Shown: positions 50,785-60,410 of the stretch, in pieces | How positions within the stretch are numbered: position 1 is the stretch's first letter | How the letters are laid out: the number at the start of each line of letters is the position of its first letter | From: an uncultured bacterium | GTDB taxonomy: Bacteria > Fidelibacterota > UBA2242 | Reading direction: 5' to 3' | Length of the DNA: 64,000 bases | Assembly (NCBI GenBank): GCA_964588795.1 | Contig: CAZPQN010000009.1 | Span: 294-64,293, forward strand | Made by a program: the position numbers and the translations under genes | The notes under the pieces: model-generated | The model's database searches: none | Told to the model about the DNA's origin: nothing | The model's input: the letters and a program-made list of their open reading frames with translations, nothing else

Positions 50785-51718
50785 GCCAGGCCTGCCGATC
50801 ATCTTTCTGCTCGGCCCGACGGCGGTCGGCAAAACTCTGACTGCTATCGAATTGGCCCGGATGATCAACGCCGAAATCATCTCCCTGGATTCGCGTCAGG
50901 TCTATCGCGGGTTGGACATCGGCACCGCCAAACCGACCCTGCGGCAACGCCGAGACGTTCCCCATCATTTAGTCGACATCCTGACGCTCGACGAAGACAT
51001 TAGCGCCGGACGCTATCGCGAGCTGGCGCTGGCGGCCATCGCCGCGACCCGCTCCCGCGGCCATCACCCCCTGTTTGTCGGCGGCAGTGGCCTGTATGCC
51101 AATGCCCTCATTAAAGGTTTATTCGAGTCCAGCCAGACTGACCCGGGTATCCGGCGCCAGTTGCACCTGGAATTGCAGACCAAAGGCAGTACGGCACTTT
51201 ACAATCGCCTCCTGGAAATCGATCCGGCGACCGCCCTCAAGACCCATCTTAACGACCACAAACGCATCACCCGTGCTCTCGAAATCTATGCCATCACCGG
51301 CCAGCCACCCAGCCAGCACTACCGTCGCCAAAACACACCCTTGCCTTTTCCCTATCAAGTTTTTATCCTGAACATGCCGCGCGAAGAACTCTATCGCCGG
51401 ATTGATCAGCGTGTGCAAAACATGCTGAGCGAGGGTTTGGTCGAGGAGGTCCGGCGTTTGATTGCGGCTGGCGGGCGAGCGCGACTGGAACAGCTGCTGA
51501 CCCTTGGTTATCAGGAAGTCCTGCATTTCCTAGATGGACACTGTACCGAAGAAGAAATGGGCCTTAACATTCAGCGCAATACACGGCGCTATGCCAAGCG
51601 GCAGCTGACCTGGTTCCGCAATCAGTATCCGGAAGCCGTTTGGGTGGAGGTCGCTCCCGACCAATCTCCGCACGCAGTAGCAGAGATTATCAGAAATTCT
51701 CTGACTAAAATTAATTGA
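50771..51718 (+). CDS. miaA: tRNA dimethylallyltransferase
   Basis: P-loop IIFLLGPTAVGKT..., DSRQVYRGLDIGTAKPT, typical MiaA length. The start overlaps the mutL end. Confidence 0.9.
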   Translation: MNGSEPGLPIIFLLGPTAVGKTLTAIELARMINAEIISLDSRQVYRGLDIGTAKPTLRQRRDVPHHLVDILTLDEDISAGRYRELALAAIAATRSRGHHPLFVGGSGLYANALIKGLFESSQTDPGIRRQLHLELQTKGSTALYNRLLEIDPATALKTHLNDHKRITRALEIYAITGQPPSQHYRRQNTPLPFPYQVFILNMPREELYRRIDQRVQNMLSEGLVEEVRRLIAAGGRARLEQLLTLGYQEVLHFLDGHCTEEEMGLNIQRNTRRYAKRQLTWFRNQYPEAVWVEVAPDQSPHAVAEIIRNSLTKIN

Positions 51719-51761: not shown

Positions 51762-51938
51762 TCAGTCGGCGGGGAGTTGCCCACAATGCTGATCGCAGTG
51801 CGTTCCGCAGGAACAACCTGCTGGCGGCGATGAGTGGCTTTCACCCTTGTAACGGACTAATTTCAGCACGACCATCAGCAAGCCTATACAGACGCTTACC
51901 GCCAACAGCGTCGTTCCGAAAAGCGCCGCTAACTGCAT
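51762..51938 (-). CDS. 58-aa Cys-rich single-TM mini-protein (NqrM-like / FeoB-associated Cys-rich membrane protein-like); below the ORF-track cutoff
   Basis: The ATG overlaps the CBS-gene stop (TAATG). Product MQLAALFGTTLLAVSVCIGLLMVVLKLVRYKGESHSSPPAGCSCGTHCDQHCGQLPAD has one TM helix followed by CxCxxxCxxxC. It is the last gene of the nqr transcription unit. Confidence 0.5.
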   Translation of the reverse strand: MQLAALFGTTLLAVSVCIGLLMVVLKLVRYKGESHSSPPAGCSCGTHCDQHCGQLPAD

Positions 51939-52393
51939 TATCTCCGCTTCCTGCCCCAGCGCCAGTTCTCGTAATACTCCCAGCTGACGCTTTCAAGTTC
52001 CCGGGTACGTTCCATCAGACAAGCGCGGAAAACATCACCGATGGAAAGCAGACCGATGATCTGACCTTCCCTGATCACAAACAGATGCCGGATAAAAAGG
52101 CCCAACATCATATCGGGCAGTTTATAAATCGGTTCATCGTAATTGACACTTTTTATATCCCGGCTCATATAATCGCCGATCAGCGCGTGCTGGACGTCAA
52201 AGTCGGCTTTATTAATGGAGTTCAGGAGGTCGCGCTCGGTCCAGATACCGACATACTGTTCACCTTCCTGGACCGCGATGGCGCCAATCTTGTTGGCGAC
52301 CATGATTTCTATGGCGGCCCTGATGGTTGTTTGCGGCGTGACGCTGATAATCGAACGGTCTTTTTCCAACACTAAATCGATGGCTCGTTTCAT
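51938..52393 (-). CDS. CBS-domain pair protein
   Basis: Two CBS-like repeats (ISVTPQTTIRAAIEIMVANKIGAIAVQEGEQYVGIWTERDLL and SRDIKSVNYDEPIYKLPDMMLGLFIRHLFVIREGQIIGLLSIGDV). 151 aa. 22 nt downstream of nqrF. Confidence 0.75.
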   Translation of the reverse strand: MKRAIDLVLEKDRSIISVTPQTTIRAAIEIMVANKIGAIAVQEGEQYVGIWTERDLLNSINKADFDVQHALIGDYMSRDIKSVNYDEPIYKLPDMMLGLFIRHLFVIREGQIIGLLSIGDVFRACLMERTRELESVSWEYYENWRWGRKRR

Positions 52394-52415: not shown

Positions 52416-53648
52416 TTAGCCGAAATTATCATAAAGGATATTTTCGGATTCCACTCCTAAATCTTCCAACATGTGGATCACGGCGCTGTTCATCAGCGGC
52501 GGCCCACAGATGTAATACTCGCAGTCTTCCGGTGCCGGATGGTTCAGCAGATAATTATTCAGGACGACGTTATGGATGAAACCGCAATGGCCTTGCCAGT
52601 TATCTTCCGGCAACGGAGCGGAGAGGGCGACATGCCAGTGGAAATTCGGAAATTCCCGCTGTAATTGGTCGAAGTCGTCCTGATAAAACACTTCTTTCAG
52701 GCTACGCGCTCCATACCAGAAAGAAATGCGCCGGTCGGTGCGCAGTCTTTTCAACTGGTCGAAAATGTGTGAGCGCATCGGAGCCATGCCGGCCCCGCCA
52801 CCGATGAAGATCATTTCGCGGTCGGTCTGCCGGGCGAAAAATTCCCCGTATGGACCGGAAATCGTGACCCTGTCACCCGACTGAAGACTGAAAAGATAGG
52901 AAGACATTTTGCCCGGCGGCACATTCGGATGATCGGGCGGCGGGGAGGCGATCCGGATATTCAGCATGATGATTCCTTTTTCTTCCGGATAATTCGCCAT
53001 CGAATAGGCGCGCACCACCTCCTCGTCCACTTTTGACACGTAACGCCACAGGTCATAGCGCTCCCAGTCGCTTCGGTACTCGTCTTCAATCACAAAATCC
53101 TTATAGGCCACGCGGTGCGGGCCGACTTCGATCTGAATATAGCCGCCGGCCCGGAAATCCACGCTTTCACCGGCTGGTAATTCCAATACCAGTTCTTTGA
53201 TAAAAGTGGCGACGTTGCGGTTGGAGCGCACGGTGCAAACCCATTTGCGGATGGCAAAAACCTCGGGAGGAATCGCCAGTTGCAGGTCGCCCTTGACTGC
53301 CAGCTGGCAGGCTAACCGATAACCTTCCCGGGCTTGCCGGCGATTGATATGCGCGGTTTCGGTGGGGAGCAGACTTCCGCCTCCAGCAACCACCCTGACC
53401 CGGCACATGCCGCATGTGCCGCCACCGCCGCACGCGGAAGCGAGGTAGATCTGCCGCCCGGCCAACGTGTTAAGCAGTTTCTCGCCCAGTGGCGTCTCGA
53501 AAGTATATTGCGGATCGTTGTTGATACTGATCTGGGCCTGACCGGTCGGGATTAACTTCGATTTCGCCCAGAGAATCAGCAGTACCAAGCTGAGCACCAC
53601 GAACGTAAACATGCCGACCGCCAGTAAAATCAAACCAGGTGCGCTCAT
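52416..53648 (-). CDS. nqrF: Na+-translocating NADH:quinone oxidoreductase subunit F (2Fe-2S ferredoxin + FAD/NADH domains)
   Basis: N-terminal TM anchor, plant-type 2Fe-2S cluster ([17 protein letters not shown] ... CQ), FAD/NAD reductase motifs (RAYSMANYP..., [15 protein letters not shown]). Confidence 0.9.
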
Positions 53649-53661
53649 GTATTTATCCCGG

Positions 53662-54273
53662 TCATAACTGAATTCCCGAAAACAGCATAAAGGCGATGGC
53701 CATCAGTCCGGCCGTAATGAAAGTGATGCCCAGTCCTCGCAAGCCCGGTGGTACATTGCTGTAGCGCAAACGCTCGCGGATGCCGGCCAGGGCGACAATC
53801 GCCAGGGCCCAGCCCAAGCCGGAACCCAACCCGAAAACCACACTTTCAGGGAAATTGTAACTGCGTTCAACCATAAACAGCGAACCGGCGAGAATGACGC
53901 AGTTCACCGTTATCAGGGGCAGAAAAATGCCCAAGGCATGATAGAGTTTGGGAAAGTAGCGATCCAAGGTCATTTCCAAAATCTGCACAATCGCCGCGAT
54001 TACTCCGATATAGGTGATCAATCCCAAAAAGGTCAGGTCTACCTGACCCAGACCGAGCCAGCCGAGCGCTCCCTCGGATAACAGGTTGCGATATATCAGG
54101 TTGTTGATCGGAACCGTGATAGTCTGGACGATGATCACGGCAATGCCTAATCCAAAAGCCGTTTCCAGGCGCTTGGAAACCGCCAAAAAAGTGCACATCC
54201 CCAAGAAAAATGCCAGGGCCATATTTTCAATGAACACAGCGCGGATGAACAGGCTCAGGTAATGTTCCAGCAT
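53662..54273 (-). CDS. nqrE: Na+-translocating NADH:quinone oxidoreductase subunit E
   Basis: [43 protein letters not shown]. Six-TM NqrE/RnfA-type protein, in the E position between D and F. Confidence 0.85.
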
Positions 54274-54276
54274 TTT

Positions 54277-54894
54277 TTACTCCTTGAGCGTCTCCGGTTT
54301 CCAGGTGCGCAAAGCCCAGATCAGGAGCCCGATCAGGAAAAAGGCGCTCGCGGGCAATACCAATAGACCATTGGGTACATACCAGCCGCCTTCAGTATAG
54401 GGAGTCAACAGGGTCACGCCCAACAATTTCCCGGCGCCCAACAGTTCGCGGAAAAACGCCACCACCAACAAAACCAAACTGTACCCCAGCCCATTACCCA
54501 AGCCGTCCAGCAAACTGGCCCCGGGCGGATTCTTCAAACCATAGGCTTCCGTGCGTCCTAACAGAATACAATTGGTGATGATCAGACCGACGTAAACGGA
54601 TAACTGCTTGCTGATATTGAAGGCAAATGCCTTGATGAACTGATCGGCGATGATGACCAGCGAGGCAATGATCGTCATTTCGACGATAATCCGGATACTG
54701 CCGGGAACCTGCTTCCGGATAAGGCTGACCGCGAAGTTGGCAAATCCAGTCACCAACGTCACGGCCAGCGCCATGACCAGCGCGGTTTCCAACTTCGAGG
54801 TCACGGCCAGGGCGGAGCAAATACCTAAAATTTGTACCACGACCGGATTATCTTTGATGATCGGATTCAGAAAAACGGTGCGCATTTTACTCAT
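54277..54894 (-). CDS. nqrD: Na+-translocating NADH:quinone oxidoreductase subunit D
   Basis: [38 protein letters not shown] is an NqrD/RnfE-type N-terminus. The start ATG overlaps the nqrC stop. Confidence 0.85.
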
Positions 54895-55684
54895 GGTGCG
54901 CCAGAGCCTCCCGCAAGGTTCGAATGACCTGACCATAGCCATTTTCACCCAACCAGAACCGCACCAGGTTATTGACCCCGCGCGTGGTCAGCGTGGCCCC
55001 CGACAATCCATCCACCTGAAATTGAGCCGCCGGAGTTCCAGGAATGACGTGTCCCTTGATGACCTCGATGAGTACCTGTCCTTCGGCATCGAGGGCGCGT
55101 TTGTCAATCCAGCTCTGCCGCCAGCGTGGATTTTCGATTTCGCCGCCCAATCCGGGCGTCTCGCCATGCTCATAAAACACCAAACCCTTGACGGTCTGCA
55201 GGTCCCGGTCGAAAGCGATGAAGCCGTACAGCGTCGACCATAAGCCCTTGCCGTAAACCGGCAGAATGACCCTGTTCGTTTGTCCGGCTTCGACGACGCG
55301 GTAAATCAGCATAAAATTGGGACGCCGCAGAATGTTGGCCGGGTCGTTTTGCGGGGGCAAGGCCGTGCTGTACAGGGGATGTTTGCTGATAACTTTCAGA
55401 TCGAATTTTTGCGGCGATAATAGAGGGGCATCGGCTGGAGTATTGACCACCGCGCCGGTCGTCAGGTCAACTAAATCGGTCCGGATTTTTTCATTATAAA
55501 TTTTCTTGACCGTCGCATCGTTAGTGTATAAATCGGCCGCGATCAAGATGTTTTTCAGACGATCCAGCTGGCGGTTTCTCTCCTGGGTCTGCCTTAACCC
55601 GACCACGGCGGAGGAAACCAATACCGAACATACCAAGCAGACTCCCAGCGCAACGAGCAAAGTCTTGCGGGTTTCAGAGGCCAT
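54887..55684 (-). CDS. nqrC: Na+-translocating NADH:quinone oxidoreductase subunit C (FMN-binding)
   Basis: Single N-terminal TM. Covalent-FMN site [12 protein letters not shown] (S/T-G-A-T). 265 aa. Confidence 0.85.
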
Positions 55685-56876
55685 GGTGCCTCCTTCTTCT
55701 GCGGCTGTGGATATTAATTACCACCCTGTCAATCACCGGGGCAAACATGTTGCCAAACAGGATCGCCAACATCATGCCCTCCGGAAAGGCCGGATTGATC
55801 ACCCTGACCAGTACTACCAACATGCCTATCAGCAAACCATACAGCCATTGGCCGGGAATCGTCACGGCGGCCGTGACCGGATCGGTAGCCATGAAAACCA
55901 TGCCAAAGGCAAAACCACCCAAGACCAAATGCCAGTAGGGAGGCACCTGAAACATCGGATTGGTCGCACTGCCGATTAAATTGAACAGCCCCGAGAGGGC
56001 TACCATCCCGGTCAGCGTGCTTAACATGATCCGCCAGGAACCGACCCCGGTAACGATCAGGATCAGCGCGCCGATTAAGCAAGCCAATGTGGAAGTTTCC
56101 CCCATTGAACCGGGAATGAAGCCCAAAAAGGCTTCCCGCCAGGTCACAGTTAATTGCATCAGTGGATCGGCCAGCTCTGCTAAAGGAGTGGCGCGACTGA
56201 CGCCATCAACGGCAACCCAAACCTTATCACCGGAAATTTGGGCCGGATAGGCAAAAAACAGAAATGCCCGCGCGACCAAAGCCGGGTTGAAAATATTATA
56301 ACCAACGCCCCCGAATACTTCTTTGCCAATTACCACTCCGAAACTGATTCCGAGGGCAACCTGCCAGTAGGGAATGGTCGGCGGTAGTATCAGAGGGAAA
56401 AGCAAACTGGTCACGAAAAAGCCTTCCGCCACTTCGTGCCGCCGCACCGAGGCAAAAAGCACTTCCCAGAAGCCGCCTGCCGCCAAGGTCACAATATAAA
56501 CCGGGAAAAAATAGAATGCGCCGAGTAAAATATTCGACCAGAAATTGGTCGGATCGGGAGCTACACCGAGGCCCGCCACCAGCCGTGCCTGCCAGGACAA
56601 TTCTGCATCTGCGCCAAGTTTGATCAACAGGCTATTTGCCTGCCAGCCGGTGTTATAGAGCGCCATGAAAACCGCCGGAAGCAGGGCGACGAAAACGACA
56701 ATCATCAGCCGCTTCAAATCCATGAAATCGCGGACATGCACCGTTCCGCGGGTGGTCTTGCCGGGCGTGTAGAGAAAAGTATCAACGGCCTCCCATAAAA
56801 AGAATAGGCGGTGCAGTTTCCCGCCTTTTTCAAAGTGCCGCGCCTGCTTATCCAAAAAGGTGCGCACCGCTTTCAC
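55674..56876 (-). CDS. nqrB: Na+-translocating NADH:quinone oxidoreductase subunit B
   Basis: N-terminus MKAVRTFLDKQARHFEKGGKLHRLFFLWEAVDTFLY. Polytopic membrane protein of 400 aa with a flavinylation-type motif region (VDGVSRATPLA). Confidence 0.85.
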   Translation of the reverse strand: MKAVRTFLDKQARHFEKGGKLHRLFFLWEAVDTFLYTPGKTTRGTVHVRDFMDLKRLMIVVFVALLPAVFMALYNTGWQANSLLIKLGADAELSWQARLVAGLGVAPDPTNFWSNILLGAFYFFPVYIVTLAAGGFWEVLFASVRRHEVAEGFFVTSLLFPLILPPTIPYWQVALGISFGVVIGKEVFGGVGYNIFNPALVARAFLFFAYPAQISGDKVWVAVDGVSRATPLAELADPLMQLTVTWREAFLGFIPGSMGETSTLACLIGALILIVTGVGSWRIMLSTLTGMVALSGLFNLIGSATNPMFQVPPYWHLVLGGFAFGMVFMATDPVTAAVTIPGQWLYGLLIGMLVVLVRVINPAFPEGMMLAILFGNMFAPVIDRVVINIHSRRRRRHHGL

Positions 56877-58246
56877 AGATTTTCCTTCGCAATGGCAGCC
56901 AACACCTGACGCAGGTTTTGCCCGTGATCAATTTTTGCCGGACAAACATAGGTGCAAAGCGCCAGGTCTTCTTCTAATAGTTCAAGAGCGCCCAATTTCT
57001 CCGCCTCCTCCAAATCACTCATCGCCAGAGCCCTAAGTAAAAAGGTCGGCAGTAAATCCAAAGGCATAACCTTTTCGTAACTACCGACTGGTATTATCGC
57101 TCGCGCACTTCCATGCGTGGAAGTCGTCAATGCCAACCGGCGCCGTGACAGGAAGCGCGACAACACGACGCGCTTGACGGAATATTCCTGGCGACCCAAG
57201 GTGAGCCAGCCGAACAACCGACGCTGTTGGTCTTCTGCTAAAACTGTGATCTGCCGCTGGAAGCGACCGAGGAAACGTAGTTCATCCGCCGCGGCATGAC
57301 CGTTCAGCACCGAACCGGCGATGACGCGGTTCAAACCCGGACGTAATTCATCAGTCATCAAATCCGTCACCTGCGCACCTAACCGGGTCCGCACTAAGCG
57401 TGGCCTGATCAATCCCGGGCCCGACAGGGCGATTGTGCGTTCGGTCAGCAGTCGTCCCGTGTTAAAAAGATATCCGATGGCGACGACCTCTTCGGCATTG
57501 ATTTGCCAGACTGCTTGCTGCCGACTTACCGGATCTAAAAAATGGATATGGGTGCCCGGCAAACCTGCCGGATGCGGGCCACTGAATTCAGCTACTAGCA
57601 GGCGGCTGTTCTCTATACGCGGTAAATCCACCCCGGGAGCCTGACAGACAAAAACCCGTCCCTCGGTAAGCTGCAGCAGAATCCGCAAACCGTAGGCGAA
57701 CTCGCGTTCCCAGCCTTGCAGTACTACGGCTAAATCAGGCGCGAGGGGACTACTGTCCAGTGCGGTGACGAAAATGGAATGCGGGACAATTTCCGGATCA
57801 GCGACGTAACCAAAGGGACGTTGCCGCAGAGCCACCCATTGCCCGGACTTGAGCAGTAGATCCACAATTGCCGCGCGCGTCAACTCCTGCTCGGGCAAAG
57901 TTTCAAAAACTGCTTCCTCCTGACCTTCCAGCTTAATGACCAGGGACAGAAAAGCCCGCTTCGCTCCGCGATTGAGTTCCACGATGCGCCCACTCCCAGG
58001 AGCCGTGAATCTGATCTGCGGCTTTTTTTTATCCACAAAAAGCGTTTGACCGGTTTGCACATGATCACCCAGACCGACAACGAATTCCGGTTTCAGGCCG
58101 GGGAAATCAATCCCCAAAACTGCGCTCTGGGTTACGGATCGGGTTTCATATACTTTCTGCTCCGGCTCTCCCGTGAGTGGCAGGTTTAAACCCTTGCGGA
58201 TTTTGAAGCGCAACGGATGACTAATAGGCGAGGGCTGGATTTTCAT
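56873..58246 (-). CDS. nqrA: Na+-translocating NADH:quinone oxidoreductase subunit A
   Basis: MKIQ...FKIRKGLNLPLTGEPEQKV is an NqrA-type N-terminus. About 457 aa, first gene of nqrABCDEF. Start set at the internal ATG; the track ORF opens 26 codons upstream. Confidence 0.85.
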   Translation of the reverse strand: MKIQPSPISHPLRFKIRKGLNLPLTGEPEQKVYETRSVTQSAVLGIDFPGLKPEFVVGLGDHVQTGQTLFVDKKKPQIRFTAPGSGRIVELNRGAKRAFLSLVIKLEGQEEAVFETLPEQELTRAAIVDLLLKSGQWVALRQRPFGYVADPEIVPHSIFVTALDSSPLAPDLAVVLQGWEREFAYGLRILLQLTEGRVFVCQAPGVDLPRIENSRLLVAEFSGPHPAGLPGTHIHFLDPVSRQQAVWQINAEEVVAIGYLFNTGRLLTERTIALSGPGLIRPRLVRTRLGAQVTDLMTDELRPGLNRVIAGSVLNGHAAADELRFLGRFQRQITVLAEDQQRRLFGWLTLGRQEYSVKRVVLSRFLSRRRLALTTSTHGSARAIIPVGSYEKVMPLDLLPTFLLRALAMSDLEEAEKLGALELLEEDLALCTYVCPAKIDHGQNLRQVLAAIAKENL

Positions 58247-58277: not shown

Positions 58278-58778
58278 TTAAGTGAAAATAATCTGAGCTC
58301 CGGCGGATAATTCGTAAAACTCACCGACGGTAAGCACCTTCTCCACCTGCGGAATGAAATCCGCCATGGTCAGGTGGAACATATCCACGGTGGCTTTGCA
58401 GGCAAAGATTCTGGCGCCGGCGTCGTGTACCATTTCCAACATCTCCGGAATGGGCGGGATGTCCAATTTCTCCATTTCCTTCTTCATCATCCAGGTCGCA
58501 AAGGCCGACATCCCCGGAATCAAGCCGACCAACGTCGGCAAGGGCAGGCCTTTGGCATCCGGAACGCGCATCGCCGGGTTGCCAACCGTGGCGATTTTAA
58601 TACTGTTGTTATACTTCTTCAAAATGCCATACAAACCGAAAAACGTGAAAAACAAGTTGACGTCGATCCCCTCCATGCGGGCGCCGTTGGCCATGATGAG
58701 CCCGGGATAGATGCCATCCAGGGAACCTTTAGAGACAATGATCGAGACCTTTTTGATCTTTTCAGGATTTTCTGCCAT
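58278..58778 (-). CDS. DsrE/DsrF-like sulfur-relay family protein
   Basis: 166 aa with a YchN/DsrE-like pattern: KVSIIVSKGSLDGIYPGLIMANGARMEGIDVNLFFTFFG and conserved Cys in ARIFACKATVDMF. Confidence 0.6.
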   Translation of the reverse strand: MAENPEKIKKVSIIVSKGSLDGIYPGLIMANGARMEGIDVNLFFTFFGLYGILKKYNNSIKIATVGNPAMRVPDAKGLPLPTLVGLIPGMSAFATWMMKKEMEKLDIPPIPEMLEMVHDAGARIFACKATVDMFHLTMADFIPQVEKVLTVGEFYELSAGAQIIFT

Positions 58779-59174: not shown

Positions 59175-60410
59175 TCAGGTTAATTTTTTACCCAGTTTAC
59201 TCATGCGGGTGGGGATGCCGGGCATTGGCCAGCCGCGCAGTAAAATATTCCAGTAAATGAATTTAAAGGCCAGTTTGCCCCAGTGATTGAGCCGCGTCTC
59301 CTTCAAAAGCGCCATCGGCCCGATAAACGGAAATGGGAAACGCCCGGCGACCGGTTCAACATCGTAATTGAAATCAATCAGAAAAGCCTTGCCAAAACCC
59401 GATTCGATGAAGCAGTTGGCGTGTCCATCGAAGCCTTCTTCCAATGGTTTACCGGCAATATAATTCAGGATGTTGTCGGTCAGGATTTCCGACTGAAAAT
59501 GCGCCACACTGCCGGCTTTGGAGCTGGGCAGGTCGCTGGCATCACCGATCACAAAAATGTTTGCGTACTTTTTCGATTGCAAGGTGTGCTTGTAGGTCGG
59601 GACATAATTCAGTTCGTCGCCCATTCCGCTGCGGGCAATGGCCTCATCGCCCATGTTGGTCGGAATAGAAACCAACAGGTCATAGGCGACCTCCTGTCCA
59701 CCGTAGGAAATGAGCTTTTTGGACGTGCCATCCACACGCTCGGTGTAGAAGTCGGGGACGATCTTGATCTGTTTTTCGGTCAATAGATGACCGAGAACGG
59801 CTGATGATTGCGGTTTGGTAAATGCGCCGCTCGCGGGCGTGACATAGGTAATCTCGACTTTGTCGCGCAGGTTTTTCCCGTGAAAAAAGGCATCCGCCAG
59901 AAAAACAAACTCCAGCGGCGCGACGGGACATTTAATCGGCATCTCGGCGACATGCAACACCAATTTGCCACCCGTCCAGTTTTGTAATTTCTGGGCTAAG
60001 GCGGTTGCGCCTTCGATCGTATAGAAATCGAAAATGTCTTCCCGCCAGCCGCCGTCCAACAAACCGGCTATTTGCTCGGGGGCAATCTTGACCCCCGTGG
60101 CAATGATCAGGAGGTGATAATCGAGGGTCTGGCCGTTTTTCAAAAGCACCTGGCTTTTTGCGGGCTGAATCGTCTCGACGGCCGCCTGAACAAATTCCAC
60201 CGACTCGGGTAAAAACGCCGCTTTTTCACGAATGACGTCTTCCGGCTGATAGATACCAAACGGAATGAACAGGAACCCGGGCTGGTAATAGTGCGTGTGA
60301 TGCTCGTCGACAACGGTGATCTTCCACTGCTTGCGGTCCAGCTTGCGTGCCAGGTGGTTTGCCATCATCGTGCCGCCCGTACCGGCTCCTAAAATTAGAA
60401 TCTTGCGCAT
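59175..60410 (-). CDS. sqr: Sulfide:quinone oxidoreductase-like flavoprotein (FAD-dependent pyridine nucleotide-disulfide oxidoreductase family)
   Basis: Rossmann ILILGAGTGGTMMANHL. SQR-type cysteine motifs IKCPVAPLEF (Cys~160 CPxAP) and GHANCFIE (C-terminal redox Cys). 411 aa. Adjacent to the TusE and DsrE homologues. Confidence 0.65.
   Translation of the reverse strand: MRKILILGAGTGGTMMANHLARKLDRKQWKITVVDEHHTHYYQPGFLFIPFGIYQPEDVIREKAAFLPESVEFVQAAVETIQPAKSQVLLKNGQTLDYHLLIIATGVKIAPEQIAGLLDGGWREDIFDFYTIEGATALAQKLQNWTGGKLVLHVAEMPIKCPVAPLEFVFLADAFFHGKNLRDKVEITYVTPASGAFTKPQSSAVLGHLLTEKQIKIVPDFYTERVDGTSKKLISYGGQEVAYDLLVSIPTNMGDEAIARSGMGDELNYVPTYKHTLQSKKYANIFVIGDASDLPSSKAGSVAHFQSEILTDNILNYIAGKPLEEGFDGHANCFIESGFGKAFLIDFNYDVEPVAGRFPFPFIGPMALLKETRLNHWGKLAFKFIYWNILLRGWPMPGIPTRMSKLGKKLT

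Follow-up and report, generated by a model that had tools for sequence, protein, structure and literature searches.

NqrM (DUF539, PF04400) is the maturation factor of Na+-NQR in Vibrio, Klebsiella and Aeromonas, and a functional Na+-NQR in a foreign host needs both ApbE and NqrM. CcoS/FixS are small membrane assembly factors of the cbb3 oxidase, which serve cofactor insertion rather than catalysis. The V. cholerae genes apbE and nqrM are found downstream of nqrABCDEF, in a common transcript with it (PMC12174285), and NqrM seems to be needed to insert the intramembrane [2Fe-2S] centre (PMC12174285; see also PMC6209661). PF12669 proteins are small Cys-rich peptides that either have their gene after feoB or are fused to the C-terminus of FeoB; they carry an iron-type Cys motif, Cx3-5Cx2-3Cx6-8C, and are presumed to have a role in iron handling (PMC8749426). 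For our comparisons, NqrM sequences were retrieved with an NqrM query; all 120 of the matches listed have PF04400, often with the name '(Na+)-NQR maturation NqrM'. The Aeromonas operon runs nqrABCDEF-apbE-nqrM (PF04400), with nqrM beginning one base past the end of apbE.

Here we describe an unannotated, divergent NqrM-like family, one of whose more divergent members is encoded in the 64,000-nucleotide stretch of DNA analyzed in this work (the window). The relevant features of the window are listed below; the coordinates of nqrA, nqrB and nqrC were converted from locus L001, and the domain assignments for these three are those of the identical L001 genes.

51762..51938, minus strand, stop included: gene for an NqrM-like small Cys-rich membrane protein, 58 aa, single-pass
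51783..51815, minus strand: Cys cluster C42-x-C44-x3-C48-x3-C52 (residues 42-52), presumed metal-binding site
51846..51935, minus strand: helix (residues 2-31), predicted membrane anchor (AlphaFold2 with the family alignment)
51938..52393, minus strand: CBS-pair protein, 151 aa (PF00571, 73 bits)
52416..53648, minus strand: nqrF (TIGR01941, 672 bits against a cut-off of 295)
53662..54273, minus strand: nqrE (PF02508; Cys27 and Cys125 align with Cys26 and Cys120 of Aeromonas NqrE)
54277..54894, minus strand: nqrD, a 205-aa gene call (PF02508)
54887..55684, minus strand: nqrC (FMN_bind)
55674..56876, minus strand: nqrB (NQR2_RnfD_RnfE)
56873..58246, minus strand: nqrA (NQRA_N/2nd/SLBB)

The window order is thus nqrABCDEF, CBS gene, small ORF, all on the minus strand, and the convergent miaA, downstream of the small ORF, ends at 51718. 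The ATG of the small ORF, at 51938-51936, overlaps the TAA stop of the CBS gene by one base (TAATG) and is immediately preceded on its 5' side by the purine-rich sequence AGGAAGCGGAG. The one-base overlap suggests that the small gene is the last of the nqr unit and that its translation is coupled to that of the CBS gene, and such coupling is probable. A promoter and terminator scan around the small gene gave no relevant signal: the two terminator-like sites that it returned lie within the CBS gene and are at chance level.

The 58-aa product of ORF 51762..51938 (minus strand) is MQLAALFGTTLLAVSVCIGLLMVVLKLVRYKGESHSSPPAGCSCGTHCDQHCGQLPAD. Translation and the TAATG junction bear out an earlier note, made from the DNA alone, which had described a 58-aa ORF starting on the CBS stop codon and encoding a single TM helix followed by the four-Cys motif CSCGTHCDQHCG; the protein has an additional fifth Cys within the helix. 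The same note had called the ORF unannotated, which holds for its name but not for its status as a gene call, since gene callers do not miss it: an unnamed 58-aa gene is called in six public contigs of the same species as the window, and the exact 58-aa sequence is found on 11 contigs in the protein collection. On the opposite strand, a 181-aa ORF (51830..52375, plus strand) overlaps the CBS gene and part of the small ORF in antisense orientation; we rejected it as a coding frame because the CBS gene that it opposes has a strong Pfam match, and it is probably a shadow ORF.

All four NqrD/NqrE cysteines are conserved in the window organism, as judged by alignment with the Aeromonas proteins: in addition to the NqrE pair listed above, Cys26 and Cys109 of the window NqrD align with Cys29 and Cys112 of Aeromonas NqrD. 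The aligned positions are the ligand positions in V. cholerae. The window holds no apbE, as the earlier note had also stated: a tblastn search with KSB1 ApbE returned no match at E<=1e-5.

Upstream of the operon, a DsrE_2-family gene (58278..58778, minus strand) lies immediately before nqrA and is overlapped by the mechanical 483-aa nqrA ORF; in gene calls, nqrA begins at 58246 and has 457 aa. Still further from the operon, a 411-aa flavoprotein ORF (59175..60410, minus strand) looks like a sulfide:quinone oxidoreductase from its sequence.

The AlphaFold2 model of the small protein is a lone helix with mean pLDDT values of 88 (residues 1-10), 97 (residues 11-20) and 86 (residues 21-30), followed by a tail with a pLDDT of about 50 that is not predicted to fold on its own. 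Residues 3-25 of the 58-aa protein contain no charged residue, and the helix ends in the basic stretch K26-L-V-R-Y-K31 (KLVRYK). The positive charges after the helix point, by the positive-inside rule, to a cytoplasmic location of the C-terminal tail. In an alignment of 79 family sequences, C42, C48 and C52 (window numbering) are invariant, and L25, Y30 and K31 are at least 90% conserved; the fourth Cys of the family, in column 43, has its counterpart one residue further on in the window protein, at C44. Variants within the species differ at two helix positions and at Q54, and never at a Cys.

We analyzed the gene neighbourhoods of 80 loci obtained from a scan for relatives of the CBS protein, with one genome per species. 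The closest relatives of the CBS protein come from Candidatus Neomarinimicrobiota/Marinimicrobia MAGs (77%, 62% and 60% identity). At each locus the ORFs downstream of the CBS gene were listed, and nqrE, nqrF and apbE were mapped by tblastn. A small ORF of 48-77 aa is present in all 27 loci that have an nqrF-CBS arrangement (nqrF at >=66% identity, directly before the CBS gene) and sufficient downstream DNA. What these syntenic ORFs have in common is a hydrophobic helix at the N-terminus, the motif (F/L)S(K/R)YK and a tail rich in Cys. As in the window, the small ORF directly follows the CBS gene in six of the 27 loci (L007-L010, L028 and L053), with a start-stop overlap, ATGA, in L007; in the other 21 it follows apbE, which then lies between the CBS gene and the small ORF. 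Such an ORF is found in none of the approximately 48 CBS loci without an adjacent nqrF, which are mostly from Desulfobacterales. The small ORF is thus kept in related and in distant genomes at the same operon position, a check that the earlier note had proposed, and 51762..51938 is a real conserved gene, not a chance ORF.

Since these loci had been chosen via the CBS gene, we also located six members of the family by their own sequences, and each of the six is the last gene of an nqr operon, five of them after apbE. One (L087) has the order nqrABCDEF, two hemerythrin genes, CBS gene, apbE, small gene; four (L088, L090/L091, L094 and L095) run nqrABCDEF, apbE, small gene and carry no CBS gene; and in the sixth (L092/L093) the order is nqrF, CBS gene, small gene. 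As four of the six sampled members lack a CBS gene, the family is linked to nqr/apbE and not to the CBS gene. The ORFs form an unannotated family at the 3' end of nqr operons in several non-proteobacterial phyla, with members in Marinimicrobia, KSB1, Calditrichota, Ignavibacteria, other Bacteroidota-like lineages and Aminicenantes. Most often the small gene comes right behind apbE, the place that nqrM takes in Proteobacteria.

Several features of the surrounding genes are recorded here in their own right. The CBS-pair protein is a conserved passenger of nqr operons, with nqrF directly upstream in 32 of the 80 homologue loci; the nqrF-linked homologues belong to Marinimicrobia, KSB1, Calditrichota, Ignavibacteria, 'Cytophagia' and Aminicenantes and usually lie between nqrF and apbE, and those not adjoining nqr are mostly from Desulfobacterales. 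The two hemerythrin-domain genes of L087 (6447..7376, on a 6.5-Mb contig) stand between nqrF and the CBS gene. In L092 (641..6251; also in L093), five unrelated genes, encoding an unknown 520-aa protein, a GT2 glycosyltransferase, a B12-binding radical SAM enzyme, a methyltransferase and an LPG_synthase_TM protein, split nqrE from nqrF and leave the nqrF-CBS-small gene block intact. In L095 (2460..6924, on a 695-kb contig), nqrB-nqrF appear to be broken into several short ORFs, with apbE and the small gene intact; the breaks probably reflect a frameshift error of the assembly rather than decay.

The window protein is difficult to place from its own sequence. Pfam and NCBIfam scans of the protein gave no match at E<=10, and a word-index search with it found only one 95%-identical cluster. 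An exhaustive phmmer search of 1.8 billion representatives returned this 95%-identical cluster together with long repetitive Cys-rich proteins, the latter with many short matched stretches, for which reason we dismissed them as compositional. Other sub-threshold Pfam and NCBIfam matches among the relatives (to YxzE, PspB, DUF1980, CcoQ and further models) were likewise disregarded, being scattered and confined to single TM helices.

Profiles built from the syntenic ORFs do recognize the protein. Leave-out profiles give it 25.6-30.5 bits; with an HMM built from 24 non-Marinimicrobia ORFs, from which the window protein and its three closest relatives were excluded, it scores 26.6 bits against a maximum of 20.1 among 1000 shuffles that keep the composition of helix and tail separately. 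The small ORF is also the sole match among 1207 six-frame segments of the window (25.6 bits, E 6.5e-7), where the runner-up reaches 8.3 bits. Searching with a family profile of 28 syntenic ORFs retrieved at least 209 clusters at E<=1e-3; among the clusters listed, all are 52-84 aa long, none has a precomputed Pfam domain, and those that the source names are called 'hypothetical protein'. They come from KSB1, Calditrichia, Ignavibacteria/Melioribacteraceae and Chlorobi-like MAGs. Among four Marinimicrobia homologues, pN (0.26-0.52) is lower than pS (0.66-0.85) in all six pairs, a comparison that we report instead of dN/dS because synonymous sites are saturated.

The earlier note had proposed the ORF as an NqrM-like candidate in an operon position equivalent to that of nqrM in Vibrio, and the position is indeed the same slot, which nqrM occupies in Aeromonas as well. 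The HMM search that the note had suggested gave a negative answer for the protein itself, which matches neither PF04400 nor the FeoB-associated PF12669 at E<=10. Nor does PF04400 match any of the 28 syntenic relatives at E<=1, and no NCBIfam model matches them above threshold. The link to NqrM is therefore indirect, by way of the family profile and of synteny, and the best label for the protein is NqrM-like, or NqrM equivalent, rather than PF04400 member.

Profile comparisons suggest a remote relationship of the family to NqrM. An HMM built from 35 real NqrM sequences gives 146 family sequences a median of 12.3 bits and a top score of 22.0, compared with a median of -0.7 bits and top scores of 18.3 and then 14.9 for 730 composition-matched shuffles; the window protein itself scores -0.6 bits. 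Aligning the 79 family sequences with the 35 NqrM sequences in hhalign gives a probability of 95.2% and an E-value of 2.6e-8 over 54 columns, and pairs the helices with each other, SGCCGGG with SGSC33GGL, and three family Cys with NqrM C33, C45 and C51. When only the NqrM tail columns are shuffled, the median score is 34.7 against 43.7 for the real alignment, with two of 150 shuffles reaching the real score; when helix and tail columns are both shuffled, the maximum is 31.2. These controls show that most of the score comes from the position-specific helix and that the Cys motif adds modestly. The Marinimicrobia subgroup alone aligns with NqrM at 22% probability in hhalign; this value and the score of -0.6 bits mean that the window protein is joined to NqrM only via its family.

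Two observations concern the helix as such. A conserved mid-helix Met (M18 of NqrM) stands in the same register in NqrM and in the new family, and the hhalign score falls from about 35 to about 19 once the helix columns are shuffled as well; the helix may thus carry specific contacts.

Based on sequence and gene order, we propose, with a probability of roughly 0.65, that the small protein is a functional equivalent of NqrM, probably a remote homologue, which would deliver iron to the NqrD/NqrE centre. The N-terminal helix would anchor the peptide in the cytoplasmic membrane, and the KLVRYK stretch would set its C-terminus in the cytoplasm. There, at the membrane surface, the flexible four-Cys tail could bind iron or an Fe-S precursor and, while Na+-NQR is being assembled, would pass it on to the four cysteines that NqrD and NqrE hold within the membrane. 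A wider version of this proposal, which we hold tentatively and at slightly less than even odds, is that (i) the family is the NqrM substitute of non-proteobacterial Na+-NQR, with a range that may cover Marinimicrobia, the FCB group, KSB1, Calditrichota and Aminicenantes, (ii) it forms one superfamily with PF04400 and PF12669, whose members may be Cys4 peptides anchored in the membrane that transfer iron to membrane proteins or take it from them, and (iii) the CBS-pair protein is a third nqr accessory factor.

The strict operon linkage and the translational coupling would equally be expected of an NQR subunit, and the CBS-pair neighbour is of a domain type that is often used in regulation. The small protein could accordingly be a permanent small accessory subunit, or a thiol- or metal-based regulator of NQR, that stays bound to the membrane subunits instead of serving transiently in assembly. 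We consider this unlikely, because the solved structures of V. cholerae NQR comprise six subunits and no NqrM-like peptide (PMC12174285), the usual neighbour of the small gene is that of a maturation enzyme, apbE, and not a structural gene, and the predicted disorder of the tail argues against a subunit role.

Affinity to PF12669 raises another possibility, that of a generic iron peptide of the PF12669 type. Judged by Pfam HMM scores, PF12669 is the nearest Pfam family, no further from the new family than NqrM is: 15 of the 28 relatives give matches that span almost all 44 positions of PF12669, with scores of 12-25.2 bits, the best being that of a Marinimicrobia protein (L008), and PF12669 proteins have an iron-type Cys motif (PMC8749426). 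None of these matches, however, reaches the gathering score of 27 bits, and the window protein gives no match at all. The genomic context is NqrM-like: the gene tables of the neighbourhoods examined contain no FeoB domain, no feoB stands beside the gene here or in the approximately 35 loci examined, and the neighbours in those loci are always nqrF, the CBS gene or apbE. The resemblance to FeoB-associated proteins to which the earlier note had pointed thus extends to architecture but not to context, and we regard a generic PF12669-type function as quite improbable. Least probable is an unexpressed ORF that arose by chance in the space separating the converging CBS and miaA genes, for which it may be said that the ORF is short and carries no database annotation, and that single-sequence searches yield near-identical copies or low-complexity Cys-rich repeats. 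This explanation is effectively excluded by the conservation of position and architecture across several phyla, by the three invariant Cys in 79 sequences, by the profile E-value of 6.5e-7, by pN<pS, and by the conserved start-stop overlaps (TAATG here, ATGA in L007). Functional equivalence to NqrM, with probable delivery of iron to NqrD/NqrE, is the reading that we prefer.

In the literature that we searched on NqrM, DUF539, FeoB-associated peptides and NQR maturation in Bacteroidetes, we found no NqrM equivalent described for these lineages; an earlier mention is possible. Bacteroidota-like and other non-proteobacterial NQR systems are without an annotated NqrM equivalent, and this family is the candidate that suggests itself. 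A name for it would fill a gap in the annotation of these nqr operons and would provide a defined gene to add when non-proteobacterial NQR enzymes are expressed. As a second, divergent set of sequences, the family would also help to work out which features of NqrM matter, the candidates being SG-x-CGG, the helix Met and the three alignable Cys, and the analysis draws attention to the CBS-pair protein linked to nqr, a partner that awaits study.

Of the described systems, CcoS/FixS of the cbb3 oxidase resembles the new family in size (about 50 aa), in its single membrane pass and in having its gene next to those of a respiratory complex; the target complex and the cofactor are different, and the comparison is one of concept alone. 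PF12669 proteins share with the family a short TM helix and a Cys-rich tail of about 20 residues, and their motif is similar in kind to the C-x-C-x3-C-x3-C of the window protein but not in spacing; their partner is feoB, or FeoB in a fusion, whereas that of the new family is nqr/apbE and never feoB. The comparison with NqrM reveals both differences and likenesses. The invariant Cys of NqrM (C33, C45, C47 and C51) are spaced C-x11-C-x-C-x3-C, in contrast to C-x-C-x3-C-x3-C for the tail Cys of the window protein (C42, C44, C48 and C52). Unlike NqrM, the new family has a CC doublet, it has (F/L)S(K/R)YK where NqrM has GY-x3-K, and it lacks the lysine- and glutamate-rich C-terminal helix of NqrM; the small gene of the window, moreover, follows the CBS gene and does not have apbE alongside, unlike nqrM. 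Against this, both proteins are small (about 50-90 aa) and have an N-terminal TM helix, basic residues, SG-x-CGG and four tail Cys, of which three are invariant in the new family, and both are encoded by the last gene of an nqr operon, usually right after apbE.
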